Virus record (IMG/VR): IMGVR_UViG_3300036855_000043
Span: 1-35,324 of that record
Source of the DNA: a virus
Taxonomy: Duplodnaviria > Caudoviricetes
Length of the DNA: 35,324 nucleotides
Direction: 5' to 3' (one strand)
Each line of letters opens with the position of its first letter. Position 1 is the stretch's first letter. The translations under genes were made by a program, and so were the position numbers. Below, one piece after another: positions 7,110 through 34,602 of this stretch. Under the pieces are notes generated by a model. The model did no database searches. It saw only the letters and a program-made list of their open reading frames with translations, and was not told the origin of the DNA.

Positions 7110-7585
7110 CCGTCGTCCTGGCCATCGATCCCGGCTCGCAGCTGTCCGGCTGGGTCGGTTATGAGGTTGGCGACAGCCGGCCGATCATGGCGCATGGCAA
7201 GCACCTCAATGAGCTCGTCCTCGCCGTCGTCAAGGAGACCCGCTTCGACGTCCTCGCCGTCGAGTGGATGGAGAGCTCGTTCGGCTCGCACATCGGCAAG
7301 GAAGTGACCGAGACGCTGTGGTGGGTCGGCCGCTTCTGCCAGGCGGCCGAGGAGCGCGGGATCCCGTTCGCCCGGGTGGGCCGCAACAAGCTGCGCCACC
7401 ACCTCACCGGCAAGGCGACCGCCAACGACACGATGATCCGCGGCGCCCTTGTTGACCGATTCGGTGGGATTGGCGGACGTTCGGCAGCGGTCGGGACGAT
7501 GAAGGCGCCCGGCCCGCTCCACGGCATCGCCGCCGACGAGTGGCAGGCACTCGCCGTGGCCGTCACCTGGGCGGACCAGCGATGA
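7106..7585 (+). CDS. RuvC-like Holliday junction resolvase
   Basis: MTVVLAIDPGSQLSGW, LAVE, TGKATAND, ADEWQALAVA match RuvC catalytic motifs; GGAGG RBS. Confidence 0.82.
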   Translation: MTVVLAIDPGSQLSGWVGYEVGDSRPIMAHGKHLNELVLAVVKETRFDVLAVEWMESSFGSHIGKEVTETLWWVGRFCQAAEERGIPFARVGRNKLRHHLTGKATANDTMIRGALVDRFGGIGGRSAAVGTMKAPGPLHGIAADEWQALAVAVTWADQR

Positions 7586-7869
7586 GCAAGCCCCGGCACT
7601 GCAAGGCCTGGCTTTGCCGGCCGCTGAACGTGGCGCCCGAGGTCAAGCCCGGTGAGTTCGCGTGGATGGTGGCCGAGATCAAGGTCCACCACGAGTCGTG
7701 CCCGTTCTGGTCGCCGCCTCAGCCAGAGCCCGGTGAGCGGCTTGAGTTCGGTGTCCACCGCCAGCTCGTCGCCGACGCGGAGACCGCCCCGGCGTGGACG
7801 CCGTTGGCCGATCTGCGGAAGGCCAAGGAGAAGAGCTACAAGCACTTCGTTCGGGGCGACGACCAATGA
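7582..7869 (+). CDS. Hypothetical protein
   Basis: ATGA overlaps at both ends; GC3-rich codons. Confidence 0.65.
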   Translation: MSKPRHCKAWLCRPLNVAPEVKPGEFAWMVAEIKVHHESCPFWSPPQPEPGERLEFGVHRQLVADAETAPAWTPLADLRKAKEKSYKHFVRGDDQ

Positions 7870-8042
7870 CCCGCCCGCCCCGCTACTACTTCCGACCGCG
7901 CCTCGTCGCGCTCGCTCTGTGCTGGCTGCTCGGCCATCGCTGGGTCGGGACCTGGCCCGACTTCGAGACGATCTCGATCTACCCACGGCCGCGGCGCTTT
8001 CACTGCCGGCGCTGCGGCGAATGGACGTTCTGGCACCGATGA
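7866..8042 (+). CDS. Small Cys/His protein
   Basis: LCWLLGHRW...CRRCGE pattern typical of small prophage proteins; ATGA overlaps. Confidence 0.7.
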   Translation: MTRPPRYYFRPRLVALALCWLLGHRWVGTWPDFETISIYPRPRRFHCRRCGEWTFWHR

Positions 8043-8221
8043 TCGAGCTCGTGACGGTCGACGAGGCAGCTGCGCGGCTGCGCATCTCGCGCCGATCGGT
8101 TTACCGGCTGATCGGCGAGGGCAAGCTGCGCCCGGTCCACCCGACGCCAGGACGCACGCTGCTGACGAGCCGCGAGGTCGACGCCTACATCGCGTCGCTC
8201 GACCGCCGGCGTGTCGCATAG
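8039..8221 (+). CDS. xis: Excisionase (MerR-like HTH)
   Basis: MIELVTVDEAAARLRISRRSVYRLIGEGKL..., directly upstream of the integrase. Confidence 0.85.
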   Translation: MIELVTVDEAAARLRISRRSVYRLIGEGKLRPVHPTPGRTLLTSREVDAYIASLDRRRVA

Positions 8222-8230
8222 GATGGCGTC

Positions 8231-9268
8231 GTGGCACGTCGTAGCCGGCACGGCGAAGGCACCTGGTATCCAGATCGCGTCAACGGTCGCTACGTCGCGA
8301 AGTACCGCGGCCACAAGGCCTACGCCAAGCCGAACACCATCGAGGGTGCGAAGCTCACGCTCGAGGCGCTGCGGCGCAAGTACGGTCGCAACGACTACAG
8401 CCCCGCCAAAGGCTCGGTCGACGACTACCTGCGCGACTGGCTCGACACGCTGCAGGGCGTCGAGGCCTCGACCAAGGTGAGCTACGCCGGCCACGTCAAC
8501 CACCACATCAGTCCCCTCATCGGCACGATCCCGGTCGTCGACCTGCGCCCGTCGGACGTCCGCGCGCTCATCGCCGATCGCCTGGCCGCCGGGCTGTCAG
8601 CTGCGACCGTGCGCCGGATCCACTCGACGCTCCACGCAGCGCTCGGCCAGGGCGTGCGCGAGCGGACGCTGCACGACAACGCCGCCCACGGCGTGACGCT
8701 GCCGAAGGTCGAGGAGAAGCTCGTGCCGGCGATGACCGAGGCGGACGCCGAGGCGATCCGCGGCGCGGTCAAGGGCACGTTCCTCGAGGCGCTCGTCGAG
8801 CTGCTCCTCGGTTCTGGCCTGCGCCTCGGTGAGGCGCTCGGCCTCAACCAGGACGACGTCAAGGGTCGCGTCGTCTGGGTGCGCAAGACGAAGGGCCGCA
8901 AGCGTGCCGTGGCCATCAGCGAGGACGCGGCCGCGGCGCTCGCTGAGCACATCGCCGAGCTCAAGGTGCGCGGCCCCGAGGAGCCGGTCTTCTTCGGCCC
9001 GCGATCGGGACGCCGACTCAACGGCTGGACCGTGACTCACGCCTTCCCGCGGATCCTGCAGGACGCTGGTCTGGCGCGGCTCAACCCGCACGGCACGCGG
9101 CACGGCGTGGCCACGATGCTGCTCGCCCAGGGCGTGCCGATGAAGCACGTCAGTGAGCAGCTCGGCCATCGATCGATCACGACGACTGACCGCTTCTACG
9201 CCCACGTGGCGCCCGAGCACCTCCAGGGTGAAGTGCAGCTGCTGAACCGGAGGAAGAAGGCAGAGTGA
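8231..9268 (+). CDS. int: Tyrosine integrase
   Basis: N-terminal arm-binding RRSRHGEGT; catalytic GLRLGE, K, HGTRH, LGH, Y (DRFYAH). Confidence 0.95.
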   Translation: MARRSRHGEGTWYPDRVNGRYVAKYRGHKAYAKPNTIEGAKLTLEALRRKYGRNDYSPAKGSVDDYLRDWLDTLQGVEASTKVSYAGHVNHHISPLIGTIPVVDLRPSDVRALIADRLAAGLSAATVRRIHSTLHAALGQGVRERTLHDNAAHGVTLPKVEEKLVPAMTEADAEAIRGAVKGTFLEALVELLLGSGLRLGEALGLNQDDVKGRVVWVRKTKGRKRAVAISEDAAAALAEHIAELKVRGPEEPVFFGPRSGRRLNGWTVTHAFPRILQDAGLARLNPHGTRHGVATMLLAQGVPMKHVSEQLGHRSITTTDRFYAHVAPEHLQGEVQLLNRRKKAE

Positions 9269-9723
9269 AGCCATCTGAGGTCGTGGTCGTCCCTGGCAGA
9301 AAGAAGCGGCCGCACAACACGGGCACGGTCTTCTTCGACAGAACTAACGGGCATTGGATTGCTCGGATGTCTCTCCCTGGTGGCCGCCGCATCCAGCACG
9401 CTCGTCGAACCGAGGAGTTGGCCTGGCGAGCCCTTGACGAGCTGTTTGCGACCACGGCGATATCTGACGACGCGAACGTCCAGCCGGTCGGTCGGCGGCA
9501 CCTGCCTCCTGCCGCGCGCTTCGCCGTGCTCGAACGCGACGGCTTCCGCTGTCGCTATTGCGGCAATACGGCGGCTCACTCTCGGCTGACGGTTGACCAC
9601 GTCCTCTCCGTAAGGAACGGTGGCTCGGATGACCCTTCGAACCTTGTGACGGCGTGTATCGATTGCAACCGTGCAAAGCAGTCGGCCAGCGTCGATCCCT
9701 CTCTGATCCCGGCCCTAGAATGA
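9265..9723 (+). CDS. HNH endonuclease with an integrase-arm-like N-terminal domain
   Basis: RFAVLERDGFRCRYCG..LTVDHV..GGSDDPSNLVTACIDCNRAK; N-terminus RPHNTGTVFFDRTNGHWIAR. Confidence 0.85.
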   Translation: MKPSEVVVVPGRKKRPHNTGTVFFDRTNGHWIARMSLPGGRRIQHARRTEELAWRALDELFATTAISDDANVQPVGRRHLPPAARFAVLERDGFRCRYCGNTAAHSRLTVDHVLSVRNGGSDDPSNLVTACIDCNRAKQSASVDPSLIPALE

Positions 9724-9944
9724 GCATCCGAGACGCGAATTGGTCTAAGAGTTGGTCTACCCGACCAGCGGCCGCGGCCGATTCCACGCTCGCGGTGGCC
9801 TTAGCTCAACCGGCAGAGCATCGGACTGTGGATCATCTGCGCGGCCTTTTCGCGCGGAACCTTCCGAGTGTCAGCCCGCGCCATGCTGTGCCATTCAGGG
9901 CCTGCCTGGGCGCGAATTGGTCTGCTGAATTGGTCTACTCGTGA
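9720..9944 (+). CDS. 74-aa ORF spanning attP (putative translational-coupling bridge)
   Basis: ATG overlaps the HNH stop (ATGA 9720-9723); its stop overlaps the LuxR-HTH GTG (GTGA 9941-9944); no recognisable domain. Confidence 0.45.
   Translation: MSIRDANWSKSWSTRPAAAADSTLAVALAQPAEHRTVDHLRGLFARNLPSVSPRHAVPFRACLGANWSAELVYS
9734..9938 (+). other. attP: tRNA-His 5'-half core flanked by two pairs of arm-type direct repeats
   Basis: GA(A/G)TTGGTCT at 9737, 9749, 9914 and 9927 around a tRNA fragment, about 0.5 kb downstream of int. Confidence 0.85.
9794..9834 (+). pseudogene. 5' half of tRNA-His(GUG) (att core; not a complete tRNA)
   Basis: G-GTGGCCT-TA-GCTC-AACCGGCA-GAGC-A-TCGGA-CT-GTG-GA-TC: acceptor 5' strand with G-1, D arm, anticodon GTG at 9828-9830; no T arm or 3' strand follows. 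Confidence 0.88.
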
Positions 9945-10156
9945 ACACCGCCGTCTACAACGGCGCCCGTCGCGCCGGCTGCACGCCGCGCGAGTCCGAG
10001 CTGCTCGCCGTCTACGTCGAGTCCGAGAAGATGGCGAACGCGGCCCTCGAGCTCGGCATCAGCCTTCACACCGCTAAGAACACGATGACCAAGGTTTATC
10101 GCCGGCTCGACGTCGGCCATGCCGCAGCGGCTGTTGCGCGGGTGATGTCGGCTTAG
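9941..10156 (+). CDS. Stand-alone LuxR/GerE-type HTH regulator
   Basis: CTPRESELL...AALELGISLHTAKNTMTKVYRRLDV fits the LuxR C-terminal HTH. Confidence 0.85.
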   Translation: MNTAVYNGARRAGCTPRESELLAVYVESEKMANAALELGISLHTAKNTMTKVYRRLDVGHAAAAVARVMSA

Positions 10157-10274
10157 ACGAAAGTCACGGGTTTTATTCGTGCGAGTACTACCCGGACGTT
10201 TAAACGGCGTTGCATAGAACCCTTGGACAGTGCATAAGGGTCGCAGTGTGCATCTCCTCCTCCCCCTCGGCGTC

Positions 10275-10304
10275 GACCGGCCGGCCTCCCCTTGCCGGCC
10301 GGTC
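10275..10304 (+). promoter_or_regulatory. 11-bp GC stem-loop ahead of the lysis-position cassette
   Basis: GACCGGCCGGC-ctcccctt-GCCGGCCGGTC perfect stem; no U tract. Confidence 0.55.
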
Positions 10305-10321
10305 ATCCTGCTGGGCGGCCT

Positions 10322-10660
10322 GTGGATGAGGCGACGTCTCGGCGGGGGAACGACTACGTCACGGTCCGTGAGTGGGCCCGGGGACGAGCCGACGACGAGC
10401 GCCAAACGCAGCGCGACCGCGATGTCGCGCTCGGCTTGAGCGAGGAACGCATCATGGCCGCCCTCAACACGCACATCCGCATCAGCCAGGACGCGCACAA
10501 GGCCCAGGACGACCGCATCGTCAAGCTCGCCGACGGCATCGACCACATCGACTCGGCGCTCGACCAGCAGCGCGGCGCGCGGAACATCCTGCTTTTCCTA
10601 GTCGGCACAAGCGTCGTCCAGGTCATCGCCCTGGTCATCACCATCCTGGTCGTGCACTGA
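10322..10660 (+). CDS. Coiled-coil protein with C-terminal TM helix (lysis-cassette membrane protein)
   Basis: Heptad-like middle and hydrophobic tail ILLFLVGTSVVQVIALVITILVVH; start codon uncertain. Confidence 0.75.
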   Translation: MDEATSRRGNDYVTVREWARGRADDERQTQRDRDVALGLSEERIMAALNTHIRISQDAHKAQDDRIVKLADGIDHIDSALDQQRGARNILLFLVGTSVVQVIALVITILVVH

Positions 10661-11391
10661 TGAACGAGAACGCGGTGGTCAAGCCAGGCGCCATCCAGAC
10701 CGTGACCGTCGGGGCGTTCTCCATCACCGGCACGCCGGCGCTCATCGCCAAGATCAGCGACATGGCCAAGCACGTTTCCGACGTGCTCGGCGATCGCATC
10801 AAGAACGTCCAGGTCGGCTTCTACTCGGCGGCGCTGATGCCCAGGCGCGCCGATGGCGGGCCGTCGGTCGGCTACACGCCGAACCCGCACAAGATCATGC
10901 TCTGGCAGGCGCTCGTGCACCACGTGCCCGAGACGTTCGCCCACGAGTGCTGCCATGTCCTCGACGGCCAGTGGATGACCACCGAGCAGCGCCAGGACAT
11001 CATGGCCCTCGAGGTGCCGCCGGCGACAAAGTGGCAGTCGGCCGACTACGACCACGAGGGCTGCGAGAACTTCGCGTGCTACGGCTCGGGCGCCCTCTTC
11101 GGCGTGCAGCCTGCCTGGCAGCGCTTCTACCTCGACCCTGTCCCGACGTCGGCGTGGCCGCAGCTCGCCGCGATGGCCCTCAAGGATTACGGCGCGCCGG
11201 TCCCGGTGCCTCCGCCCGATCCGACACCGCCGGATCCGGTCGACCTGCAGGCCCAGATCGACGAGCTGTCCGCCCAGCTCACGCAGTCGGCGTCCGCACT
11301 GCAGTCGTGCCAGAACGATCGCACCAACGCCCTGAACACCATCGCCCAGCTCAACACCAAGATCGCCGCGGCGAAGACGGCGCTGACATGA
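10660..11391 (+). CDS. HExxH zinc metallopeptidase (zincin) with Pro linker and C-terminal coiled coil, in the endolysin position
   Basis: TFAHECCHVLD at 10942-10956 plus downstream CENFA; PVPPPDPTPPDP linker; TGATG and ATGA overlaps. Confidence 0.8.
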   Translation: MNENAVVKPGAIQTVTVGAFSITGTPALIAKISDMAKHVSDVLGDRIKNVQVGFYSAALMPRRADGGPSVGYTPNPHKIMLWQALVHHVPETFAHECCHVLDGQWMTTEQRQDIMALEVPPATKWQSADYDHEGCENFACYGSGALFGVQPAWQRFYLDPVPTSAWPQLAAMALKDYGAPVPVPPPDPTPPDPVDLQAQIDELSAQLTQSASALQSCQNDRTNALNTIAQLNTKIAAAKTALT

Positions 11392-31997: not shown

Positions 31998-32420
31998 TCA
32001 ATCAACCGTGGCCGGACTTTGAGCGCGAACTGCGTCTGCGATTTGTGACAACGCTGCTTCGCCTCCAACGGAGTGCGCGACCAGTGCCAGCAACTCGGTC
32101 AGAAACGACGCGCTTTGTCGTTGTTCCTGGCGGACTTCGCGAACGGCCGCGGTCAGCTCGCGAATAGCGGCGACCAGATCGCTCCGGTCGTCAGCCTCGA
32201 CGGGCGCGGTCGTGCCAAAGATCCGCTCGAGCCCTTCGATGTTGTCGACGCTCGGCGACCGGCCTGATTCCCAGACCTGCACCGTGCTCTCTTCGGCCTC
32301 GTAACCAAGGTCCTTCAGCCGCCTCGAAACGTCTGCCGGCTTCCAGCCCATGCGTTTCCGCTCGTCGACGATCCACTGACTGACCGGAGGCTTTGGCTTG
32401 CGAGCCGCTCTGACTGCCAC
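31998..32420 (-). CDS. CI-like immunity repressor (XRE HTH, no S24 peptidase domain)
   Basis: ERKRMGWKPADVSRRL...STVQVWESGRSPS; divergent from the cro-like gene. Confidence 0.82.
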   Translation of the reverse strand: MAVRAARKPKPPVSQWIVDERKRMGWKPADVSRRLKDLGYEAEESTVQVWESGRSPSVDNIEGLERIFGTTAPVEADDRSDLVAAIRELTAAVREVRQEQRQSASFLTELLALVAHSVGGEAALSQIADAVRAQSPATVD

Positions 32421-32510
32421 GCGCCGACGTTAGACGAAAACTTGTCGATTGCGTCAGATTTCACGATTAGTTCTTGACAAGGTTGCGTAAGCCTGTCAGC
32501 ATCCGCGACC
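32421..32510. promoter_or_regulatory. Divergent cI/cro promoter-operator region
   Basis: + strand TTGACA (32474)-17 bp-CAGCAT with TGn extension; - strand TAACGT 6 nt before the cI GTG; TTGCGT(C/A)AG at 32449 and 32483. Confidence 0.8.
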
Positions 32511-32741
32511 ATGACAACGATGAACGAGGAACTCGTCAGCGGCCTCGAGCTGAAGCTCGAGCGGGTCGCACGCCAGGTCAAGGCGTCCGATCTAGCCGCA
32601 CAAATCGGTGTCTCTCGCTCGTACCTGTCGCAACTCGAGAGCCGTCACAGCGTCAAGCCCGAGGCCGCTCAGCGGTACCGAGCCGGACTTGCAACCTTTC
32701 CAAGTCTTGCAAGCCATTCAGAGAGCTCGAGCGCCGCGTGA
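32511..32741 (+). CDS. Cro-like XRE HTH protein
   Basis: LKLERVARQVKASDLAAQIGVSRSYLSQLES. Confidence 0.85.
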   Translation: MTTMNEELVSGLELKLERVARQVKASDLAAQIGVSRSYLSQLESRHSVKPEAAQRYRAGLATFPSLASHSESSSAA

Positions 32742-33523: not shown

Positions 33524-33545
33524 ACGGGCTCAAGGGCCGGACCGA

Positions 33546-33600
33546 GACCGGGCACGGCGACGGTCCGGCCCGACCGGGCACGGCGACGGTCCGGCCCGAC
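33546..33600 (+). repeat. 26-bp perfect tandem duplication
   Basis: GACCGGGCACGGCGACGGTCCGGCCC twice (33546-33571, 33572-33597) plus GAC. Confidence 0.92.
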
Positions 33601-33639: not shown

Positions 33640-34602
33640 ATGGTTGGACTGATTCAGGATCGGCTCGAGAAGCTGCCCAAGATCGTCCTGCGCTCGGGCG
33701 CAGGCCCAGCGCCGAACGGCAAGGTCGACGGCTGCGTCATGCAGGTTGTGGCCTGGGTCGCCGGCGAGCCGTGGAGCGACCACCCGGCGTGCGCCAGCCC
33801 GCTGCTGACGAGCTTCTGCATCCGGCTCAACGACCGCTGGTCGGACGAGGACCGGCAGCTGCTCAAGCCGTTCATCCCGCGCCTGGTCGGGACCAACCTG
33901 GGCAAGGCCGTCGACAAGGAGCGCGCCTACCTCATGGCCGACTGGGCGGTGCGCTCCTACGCCCCGCGCTGGCTGCGCAAGGCAGGCATGGACGACGAGG
34001 CAGCAAAGCTCGAGGCGCTCGCGCCGCTGACCGACGCGGCGAGCTCGCGCAAGGCGCGCACGATCACCCAGGCGACGCGCGAGGTCGCGTGGGCCAGGCG
34101 AGAGGCAGTCCGCGAGCTGATCCGGGCCAAGGTCCGGGCTGAGCTCGAGGCGCAGGGAATCGCTGTCGCTGACGCTGCCGCTGACGCTGCCGCTGCCGCT
34201 GCCGCTGCCGCTGTCGCTGCCGCTGCCGCTGTCGCTGTCGCTGCCGCTGACGCTGCCGCTGCCGCTGCCGCTGCCGCTGTCGCTGCCGCTGCCGCTGTCG
34301 CTGTCGCTGTCGCTGTCGCTGCCGCTGCCGCTGTCGCTGTCGCTGCCGCTGCCGCTGCCGCTGTCGCTGCCGCTGCCGCTGTCGCTGTCGCTGCCGCTGT
34401 CGCTGTCGCTGCCGCTGTCGCTGTCGCTCGGTCGAAGGGCGACTACTGGGCGCAGTACAACGCCGCCTATAAGGCCGCGAAGCCTCAATTCGAGAAGCTG
34501 TATGCCGAGGTTGCGCACGAAGTGCGCGACGAGGTCTTACAGCTGCTCGACCGCCTGATCGAGGTCGGCAAGCCGGACGCACCAGCCGCAGTCGCGGCAT
34601 GA
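33640..34602 (+). CDS. Conserved hypothetical protein with an Ala/Val/Asp repeat tract
   Basis: GCVMQVVAWVAGEPWSDHPACASP..IRLND motif; strong purine-rich RBS; ATGA overlap with the next gene. Confidence 0.85.
   Translation: MVGLIQDRLEKLPKIVLRSGAGPAPNGKVDGCVMQVVAWVAGEPWSDHPACASPLLTSFCIRLNDRWSDEDRQLLKPFIPRLVGTNLGKAVDKERAYLMADWAVRSYAPRWLRKAGMDDEAAKLEALAPLTDAASSRKARTITQATREVAWARREAVRELIRAKVRAELEAQGIAVADAAADAAAAAAAAAVAAAAAVAVAAADAAAAAAAAAVAAAAAVAVAVAVAAAAAVAVAAAAAAAVAAAAAVAVAAAVAVAAAVAVARSKGDYWAQYNAAYKAAKPQFEKLYAEVAHEVRDEVLQLLDRLIEVGKPDAPAAVAA
34162..34428 (+). repeat. Coding hexanucleotide array (GCTGNC)x44
   Basis: Units GCTGCC, GCTGTC, GCTGAC encode Ala-Ala, Ala-Val, Ala-Asp. Confidence 0.95.
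34461..34586 (+). repeat. 126-bp exact direct repeat, copy 2
   Basis: Identical to 1-126. Confidence 0.97.

Follow-up and report, generated by a model that had tools for sequence, protein, structure and literature searches.

A 74-codon open reading frame runs through the entire attachment site (attP) of a circular soil phage and overlaps, by four nucleotides at each end, the stop codon of the last early gene and the start codon of a small regulator gene that has no Shine-Dalgarno (SD) sequence. We favour a role of this frame, hereafter the bridge, in translational coupling, on the strength of sequence comparisons, and gating of the regulator by integration and excision of the phage appears plausible. 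The more specific view of the bridge as a sequence-free coupling leader that is cut by integration stands, in our judgement, at about even chances. Comparison with related phages shows in addition that the bridge is optional in this family of tRNA-integrating phages, because six of 11 informative relatives do without it.

Genome organization and early operon

The stretch analysed, here called the window (IMGVR_UViG_3300036855_000043, 35,324 nt), is a complete circular phage contig consisting of a 34,460-nt unit and an 864-nt terminal repeat, with a GC content of 67.8% and nearly all genes on the plus strand. The 40-nt core of its attachment site matches 12 genome loci, each of them a full tRNA-His gene; at 11 of these loci the label is of Chloroflexota type, including two Limnocylindrales, and at the remaining one it is Steroidobacteraceae. 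The phage's host is probably a Chloroflexota bacterium.

Early genes begin with a cro-like gene (32511-32741, plus strand) and continue round the origin to an excisionase-like helix-turn-helix gene (xis, 8039..8221, plus; PHROG 66 excisionase, E 3.5e-8), a tyrosine integrase with an N-terminal extension (8231..9268, plus; Pfam PF00589, E 1.5e-29), whose closest homologs are 60-78% identical, and an HNH endonuclease gene (9265..9723, plus), which is GTGA-coupled to the integrase and has its own SD. A repressor-like gene (31998-32420, minus) diverges from the cro-like gene, the pair spanning 31998..32741, and past the attP region lie the genes for terminase small subunit, portal, protease and capsid. 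The preliminary description of this DNA had nearly all early genes joined by 4-nt overlaps, which is roughly right: 17 of the 24 junctions from cro to HNH are at -4 and 20 of 24 overlap, in gene calls that are our own and were partly steered by overlaps. Ahead of the gene at 33640, two tandem copies of a GC-rich repeat of ~27 nt (33540-33600) may mark an origin or a regulatory element.

The attachment site and the frame across it

The bridge (9720..9944, plus) runs from an ATG at 9720 to a TGA at 9944 with no internal stop, and stops are present in all five other frames over the same positions. Its start overlaps the HNH stop (9721-9723) in an ATGA, and its stop overlaps the regulator's GTG at 9941 in a GTGA (9941-9944). 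That the site is the attP of a tyrosine integrase is firm, given the adjacent integrase, the tRNA core and a pair of arm repeats on each side. The four copies of TTGGTCT in the window (9740, 9752, 9917 and 9930), with none on the minus strand, all fall within the bridge; they make up a left arm-type pair on the P side (9738..9759, plus) and a right pair on the P' side (9915..9937, plus), and relatives likewise have pairs on both sides of the core. The core itself (9795..9834, plus) equals nucleotides 1-40 of tRNA-His at 40/40 positions and is identical in 12/12 of the bacterial loci, which had been found by that pattern. It ends two bases past the anticodon loop (9826-9832), the probable place of the crossover. 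Between core and right arms, three short repeats with a 10-nt period (9880..9909, plus; copies at 9880, 9890 and 9900) are likely excisionase (X) sites, and arrays similar by eye occur in relatives. The bridge thus crosses all four arm repeats and the tRNA core, as the preliminary description had it, and would be split by integration.

The bridge peptide has no homolog in Pfam, PHROG or a protein database search, and third-position GC of the frame is 0.65, against mostly 0.8-0.9. RNA folding of the stretch is unremarkable (z -0.96), and an Rfam scan gave nothing above the gathering score. The integrase ends at 9268, ~470 nt upstream of the first arm at 9738, placing attP outside the integrase frame; the crossed frame has no helix-turn-helix match, and the repressor-like gene lies elsewhere.

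The preliminary description was silent on which part of the tRNA the core represents. ARAGORN finds no tRNA in the window, and the core is the 5' half only. In the relatives at tRNA-His that integrase homology or a pattern search turned up, it is the 3' half, in the same orientation. The window and its near-twin have the 5' half, and the near-twin alone was found with the 5'-half pattern among viral contigs. Such 5'-half sites are known but uncommon, since Islander records a 5' fragment in 159 of 3919 islands (PMC4383910). In those islands, as would be the case for the window, the tRNA gene is restored at the far junction from the 5' part that the element brings along (PMC4383910). The tRNA-His kin of the window that were examined have the usual 3' half, with the same site in the anticodon loop, so the window's lineage probably switched tRNA half.

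Several further observations concern these sites. HNH genes in the window (9265-9723), L020, L097 and L232 adjoin arm-repeat pairs on either side of attP; some of the HNH genes beside arms have an integrase-like N-terminal part, which raises the possibility of homing to att arms, and in L232 an antisense HNH fragment sits between duplicated arms. Within L005 1942-3076, an unrelated, divergent tyrosine recombinase gene lies just upstream of a host tRNA-His that has no usual promoter box, possibly another element of the 5' type.

The regulator and the start of the late region

The gene after the bridge (9941..10156, plus) encodes a helix-turn-helix protein of LuxR/GerE or sigma-region-4 likeness and is the last gene before a putative late promoter. 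Its earlier assignment to the LuxR type is below threshold in Pfam, where PF00196 (GerE) scores 20.5 bits, under the gathering cut-off of 23.5; PHROG 3282 matches at E 3.3e-5. Four of eight homologs of the regulator contain PF00196. The predicted structure is all-helical (pLDDT 65.6), and many top matches in a fold search are NarL/LuxR-type domains, none with E below 0.79 and hence not significant. The lack of an SD was borne out with a generic anti-SD motif rather than the host's own: the duplex before 9941 scores -2.7 kcal/mol, which is background (median at random positions, -2.6), and eight other genes of the window range from -5.0 to -9.5 in the same scoring. In all aligned orthologs, asparagine directly follows the start codon, and this codon creates the TGA of the overlap.

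We consider the regulator a likely late activator, judging from its position as the last gene before a non-coding stretch shared with L177 and as the end of the gene chain in L236; this fits the reading and does not prove it. A role of the LuxR-like gene as the immunity repressor was ruled out, as a divergent repressor/cro pair exists. The putative late promoter and leader (10157..10321, plus) contain motifs common to L177, which holds the closest regulator ortholog among the fetched loci.

In detail, GTACTAC and a TGCATAA motif are retained past the regulator ortholog in window 10185-10310 and L177 900-1030; after them come CU-rich anti-SD-like loops, a hairpin and then the first late gene, and CU-rich leaders of a similar kind occur in many relatives. 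The 10-mer TTAGACGAAA has its sole copies at the regulator stop (10153-10162) and between repressor and cro (32430-32439), possibly as a shared operator. Lysis genes had been named alongside regulator and virion genes in the preliminary description, which found no support here: Pfam and PHROG returned no lysis-family match. By eye, an HExxH motif and a tail resembling a coiled coil make the second late gene (10660-11391) a candidate lysis peptidase; in PHROG it has a weak, unrelated match only.

Promoters and junctions after integration

A -10-like hexamer, TAGAAT (9716..9721, plus), overlaps both the HNH stop and the start of the bridge, a feature that had gone unmentioned in the preliminary description. 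It is one of only two plus-strand hexamers in the circle that match the -10 consensus at no fewer than 5/6 positions, and it lies 74 nt ahead of the tRNA start. A comparable box lies 20-70 nt upstream of the gene in 11/12 host tRNA-His loci, and at attR TAGAAT is the candidate promoter of the restored tRNA-His. A promoter scanner applied to 7500-11000 detected no full sigma-70 site. The absence of any further -10-like box from 9200-9960 speaks against leaderless initiation at 9941. In relatives, a -10-like hexamer recurs in the left arm, 26-27 nt before the anticodon (L023, L026, L030, L097, L098, L180 and L192; 7/23 relatives), where it adjoins a CGTGCG-like motif and could be a promoter or an accessory-factor site.

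Because the core is the 5' half, the attL-side junction would place the right arms, the regulator and the late genes behind the host promoter and a broken 5' half, and the other junction would join integrase, HNH gene and left arms to a restored tRNA-His. The restored gene would be cut from its host promoter and need one from the phage. Taken together, the 5'-half core and the -10 box predict that integration swaps promoters, placing the regulator behind that of the host tRNA and depriving it of its supply of ribosomes. In simulated attL junctions the cut frame retains in-frame GTG codons, mostly without SD, one of them at the tRNA's first base, so some leak is possible.

The separation of early genes from regulator and late genes by integration, as the preliminary description had proposed, is visible at natural prophage ends of relatives (L190, L177/L227). 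At the natural attL ends of L190 and L199, the host tRNA-His is followed by the late leader; the tRNA gene reads into phage DNA, with no U-tailed terminator by eye. The ends in L026 and L231 show the integrase followed by non-phage-looking DNA, and record G403 has regulator ortholog and integrase at opposite ends. For the window phage itself, no attL or attR junction was seen in the contigs of two runs; a hole at 9860-9939 in run X1 carries no weight either way. Integrase searches found no prophage of the window phage (2/401 genomes matched, 22/401 at a looser cut, and 4/401), and the regulator search matched 0/381 genomes.

Chance and conservation of the bridge

Could such a frame arise by chance? 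At the window locus, the chance of a bridge is ~0.06 with the core fixed and the flanks randomised, and 0.16-0.21 if the start codon is given. By itself, the window's bridge is not clearly beyond chance, and support comes from relatives. Its start may come free with the -10 box and the HNH stop, and its GTGA end with the regulator's conserved Asn2. Phase-randomised nulls were used here; a fixed-gap shuffle null was discarded, as it gives unbridged loci zero chance. None of nine other intergenic gaps in the window is bridged, a comparison that is partly circular in that bridged gaps would be called genes.

In the near-twin L002, a phage 98.6% identical to the window, 6 nt are inserted directly ahead of the regulator start, and both the frame and the GTGA overlap are kept; an indel of this size would keep the frame one time in three by chance. 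The same allele is present on a contig of run X2, possibly the run that L002 itself came from. Other codon changes between the two bridges number two non-synonymous and no synonymous, against synonymous/non-synonymous counts of 8/0 in the regulator and 14/2 in the integrase.

In 11 distant relatives, attP and the late leader are separated by a gene. Five of them (L017, L018, L024, L032 and L098) are bridged, counting as a bridge one frame that runs from within a few nucleotides of the upstream stop to within a few nucleotides of an in-frame downstream start. The expectation is 0.68 (P 2e-4), and after pruning of kin 4/9 are bridged (P about 0.001); these P values are optimistic, because the loose window and the downstream starts were picked after the frame maps had been viewed. 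Under a strict rule, with one frame and 1- or 4-nt overlaps at both ends, the count is 2/11 (P 0.026), and 1/9 (P 0.24) in one kin-pruned subset; 4/11 qualify if strict overlaps are kept and a three-codon mini-frame is allowed. The remaining six (L019, L020, L023, L029, L097 and L187) have no restart near the upstream stop. The open frame that the preliminary description expected to be conserved is kept in L002 and has a counterpart in 5/11 distant relatives; its absence from 6/11 counts in part against that description. The coupling reading gains from the frame-keeping indel and the above-chance recurrence, and is weakened by the six unbridged relatives.

A second comparison bears on the same point. 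Across 23 att loci, all six with an ATG or GTG beside the upstream stop, the window included, have frames that cross the core and reach the next gene. A seventh locus, the rebuilt attP of G403 described below, behaves in the same way, and the chance per locus is 0.08-0.37. An ATG or GTG restart is missing from all 11 att loci that lack an early gene downstream. If TTG is allowed, three of these control loci have a restart; the frames of L021 and L233 cross the core, and that of L182 stops before it. Left out of the counts were duplicates (L031 of L017, L033 of L032, and re-fetches among L184-L203), L192 (a read-through frame, with no integrase on the fragment), L190 and L199 (which show an attL end only), L195 (an unrelated tRNA cluster) and loci with another or unclear site (L022, L028, L099, L103 and L204). 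In L192, the frame comes from well upstream and reads through the whole attP to an ATGA overlap.

Outside the shared tRNA part, the bridges of relatives differ in length and are mostly unrelated in sequence. The window's bridge differs from that of its closest integrase kin, L017 and L018, in tRNA half, start and stop, and was therefore probably rebuilt independently; L017 and L018 are themselves kin and have a common start. In the integrase tree, bridged loci stand in four places, and five of the six unbridged loci fall in one clade. The attP of G403, rebuilt from the prophage's two ends, belongs to another integrase at a tRNA-Pro site in opposite orientation; an ATGA restart opens a 65-codon frame that crosses its core and overlaps an HNH gene by 11 nt, and this HNH gene is itself coupled to the closest regulator ortholog among the fetched loci. 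SD scores are good for the genes downstream of the bridge in L024 and L098 and nil in unbridged L019 and L029, so that absence of an SD does not track the bridge cleanly.

Gene order in relatives also hints at history. HNH orthologs lie downstream of attP in L020 and L097, which suggests that the window arose by rearrangement and that only a version that kept coupling was retained. In L236, which lacks an integrase, the regulator ortholog is still last in a GTGA chain. Within L236 1-1200, integrase core and attP are lost, and xis, an integrase-N-terminus/HNH remnant, a small frame and the regulator form a coupled chain.

Discussion

How would a frame across attP act? On free or excised DNA, the early transcript would cross attP; ribosomes stopping at the HNH stop would restart at 9720, read arms and core, and restart again at 9941 by termination-reinitiation. 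The SD-less regulator would in this way be fed by ribosomes handed over from the early operon. Such coupling requires overlaps or very short gaps, according to two studies (PMC10666635; PMC6728339). The supply would end when integration cut the bridge in the anticodon loop, and would return upon excision. In the prophage, the regulator would sit behind the host tRNA-His promoter and the broken tRNA half, severed from the host 3' sequences; it might be transcribed by read-through from the tRNA promoter, without coupled ribosomes, and the phage -10 box at 9716 would drive the tRNA-His restored at attR. Since an ordinary divergent repressor/cro pair is present, the bridge is not the main lysis-lysogeny switch. 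If the regulator turns on late genes, the gate would serve as a safety lock and timer in addition to the cI/cro switch, without replacing it. The full account, in which Chloroflexota phages repeatedly evolved a ribosome bridge over attP, recombination gates translation of a late activator that is silent in the lysogen behind the tRNA promoter, and tRNA-His passes to a phage promoter, is one that we put forward tentatively, as possible rather than probable.

The bridge could instead be translated and needed in the free phage only, to keep a coupled operon continuous across attP. It would then gate nothing useful in the lysogen, for which repression and the split in transcription would already suffice. 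The existing cI/cro pair and the half of the relatives that manage without a bridge speak for this, and so do L020 and L177, in which HNH and regulator genes are adjacent and overlapping downstream of attP, so that the window looks like a rearrangement forced to keep coupling. The rearrangement history fits this alternative and our best explanation alike. Yet coupling, if required, is automatically cut by integration, and the tRNA read-through in L190 and L199, with no visible terminator, would give a reason for a translational lock. We regard continuity of the operon as the sole function of the bridge as somewhat doubtful.

Rather unlikely, in our view, is that the frame is open merely as a consequence of GC-rich DNA, the -10 box and a start inherited with the regulator, the real switch being the promoter swap, with the regulator transcribed from a P-arm promoter at attP or the host tRNA promoter at attL and initiated independently of an SD. 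The chance level at the window locus (0.06-0.21) would allow it, the start codon takes its A and T from TAGAAT, the conserved asparagine of the regulator creates the TGA, and the peptide has no homolog. Recurrence in relatives, however, exceeds the null, the insertion in L002 keeps the frame while altering the spacing to any upstream element, and a second -10-like box is missing from 9200-9960. That the 74-aa peptide is a functional protein made from excised DNA only would agree with a complete frame with start and stop in an operon context, but is very improbable: it has neither homologs nor family matches, all codon differences in L002 are non-synonymous, third-position GC is low, and the bridges of relatives vary in length and sequence outside the tRNA part.

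The elements of the proposed gate have precedents. Excision-dependent expression across an att site is known, at the level of transcription, for Tn916 (PMC4344509, citing Celli and Trieu-Cuot) and ICEclc (PMC5812530). As proposed for the window, genes beyond the joint are expressed upon excision and circularisation; those cases concern transcription in ICEs, whereas the window would use a translated frame, in a phage, to feed a regulator. In the integration-dependent immunity of the mycobacteriophages BPs, Brujita and Charlie, attP also lies inside a reading frame and integration alters the output of a regulator (PMC3694055). In those phages, however, the repressor gene contains attP, a degradation tag is lost on integration, and there is no xis (PMC3694055); the window's split frame belongs to no protein family and is accompanied by the xis-like gene (8039-8221), arm-type sites and a separate cI/cro pair. 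Mx8 and SSV integrases likewise have a frame across attP that is cut upon integration, but it is the integrase itself (PMC4383910), which in the window ends well upstream of the arms. The closest parallel to the leader function is S004-repA of SGI1, in which a short leader frame must be translated in cis for the overlapping downstream gene; unlike the bridge, it spans no att site and is not cut by recombination (PMC7826253). In HE-PICIs, too, late functions wait for an excision event, with the difference that a satellite interrupts the helper's late gene, whereas in the window the phage's own attP would be the break (PMC10111431). Finally, tRNA-dependent lysogeny combines a short core with a complete phage replacement tRNA (PMC10865867); the window has a 40-nt core and no complete tRNA. 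Excision-gated expression, attP-split frames and leader coupling are thus known already, and the literature searched, whose coverage takes in few subscription papers, showed no case of an attP-spanning coupling leader.

Limnocylindria phages and prophages appear to be little studied, and our analysis suggests that 'spurious' reading frames over attP sites are worth re-reading. If the proposal is true, integration itself would be the off-switch for the regulator, and recombination of DNA would act as a translational switch, a compact design for recombinase-gated expression. It would also offer a testable answer to how prophages behind strong tRNA promoters silence the lytic regulators downstream. 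Attachment sites could then carry a second code as well, namely a frame held open solely for handing on ribosomes.
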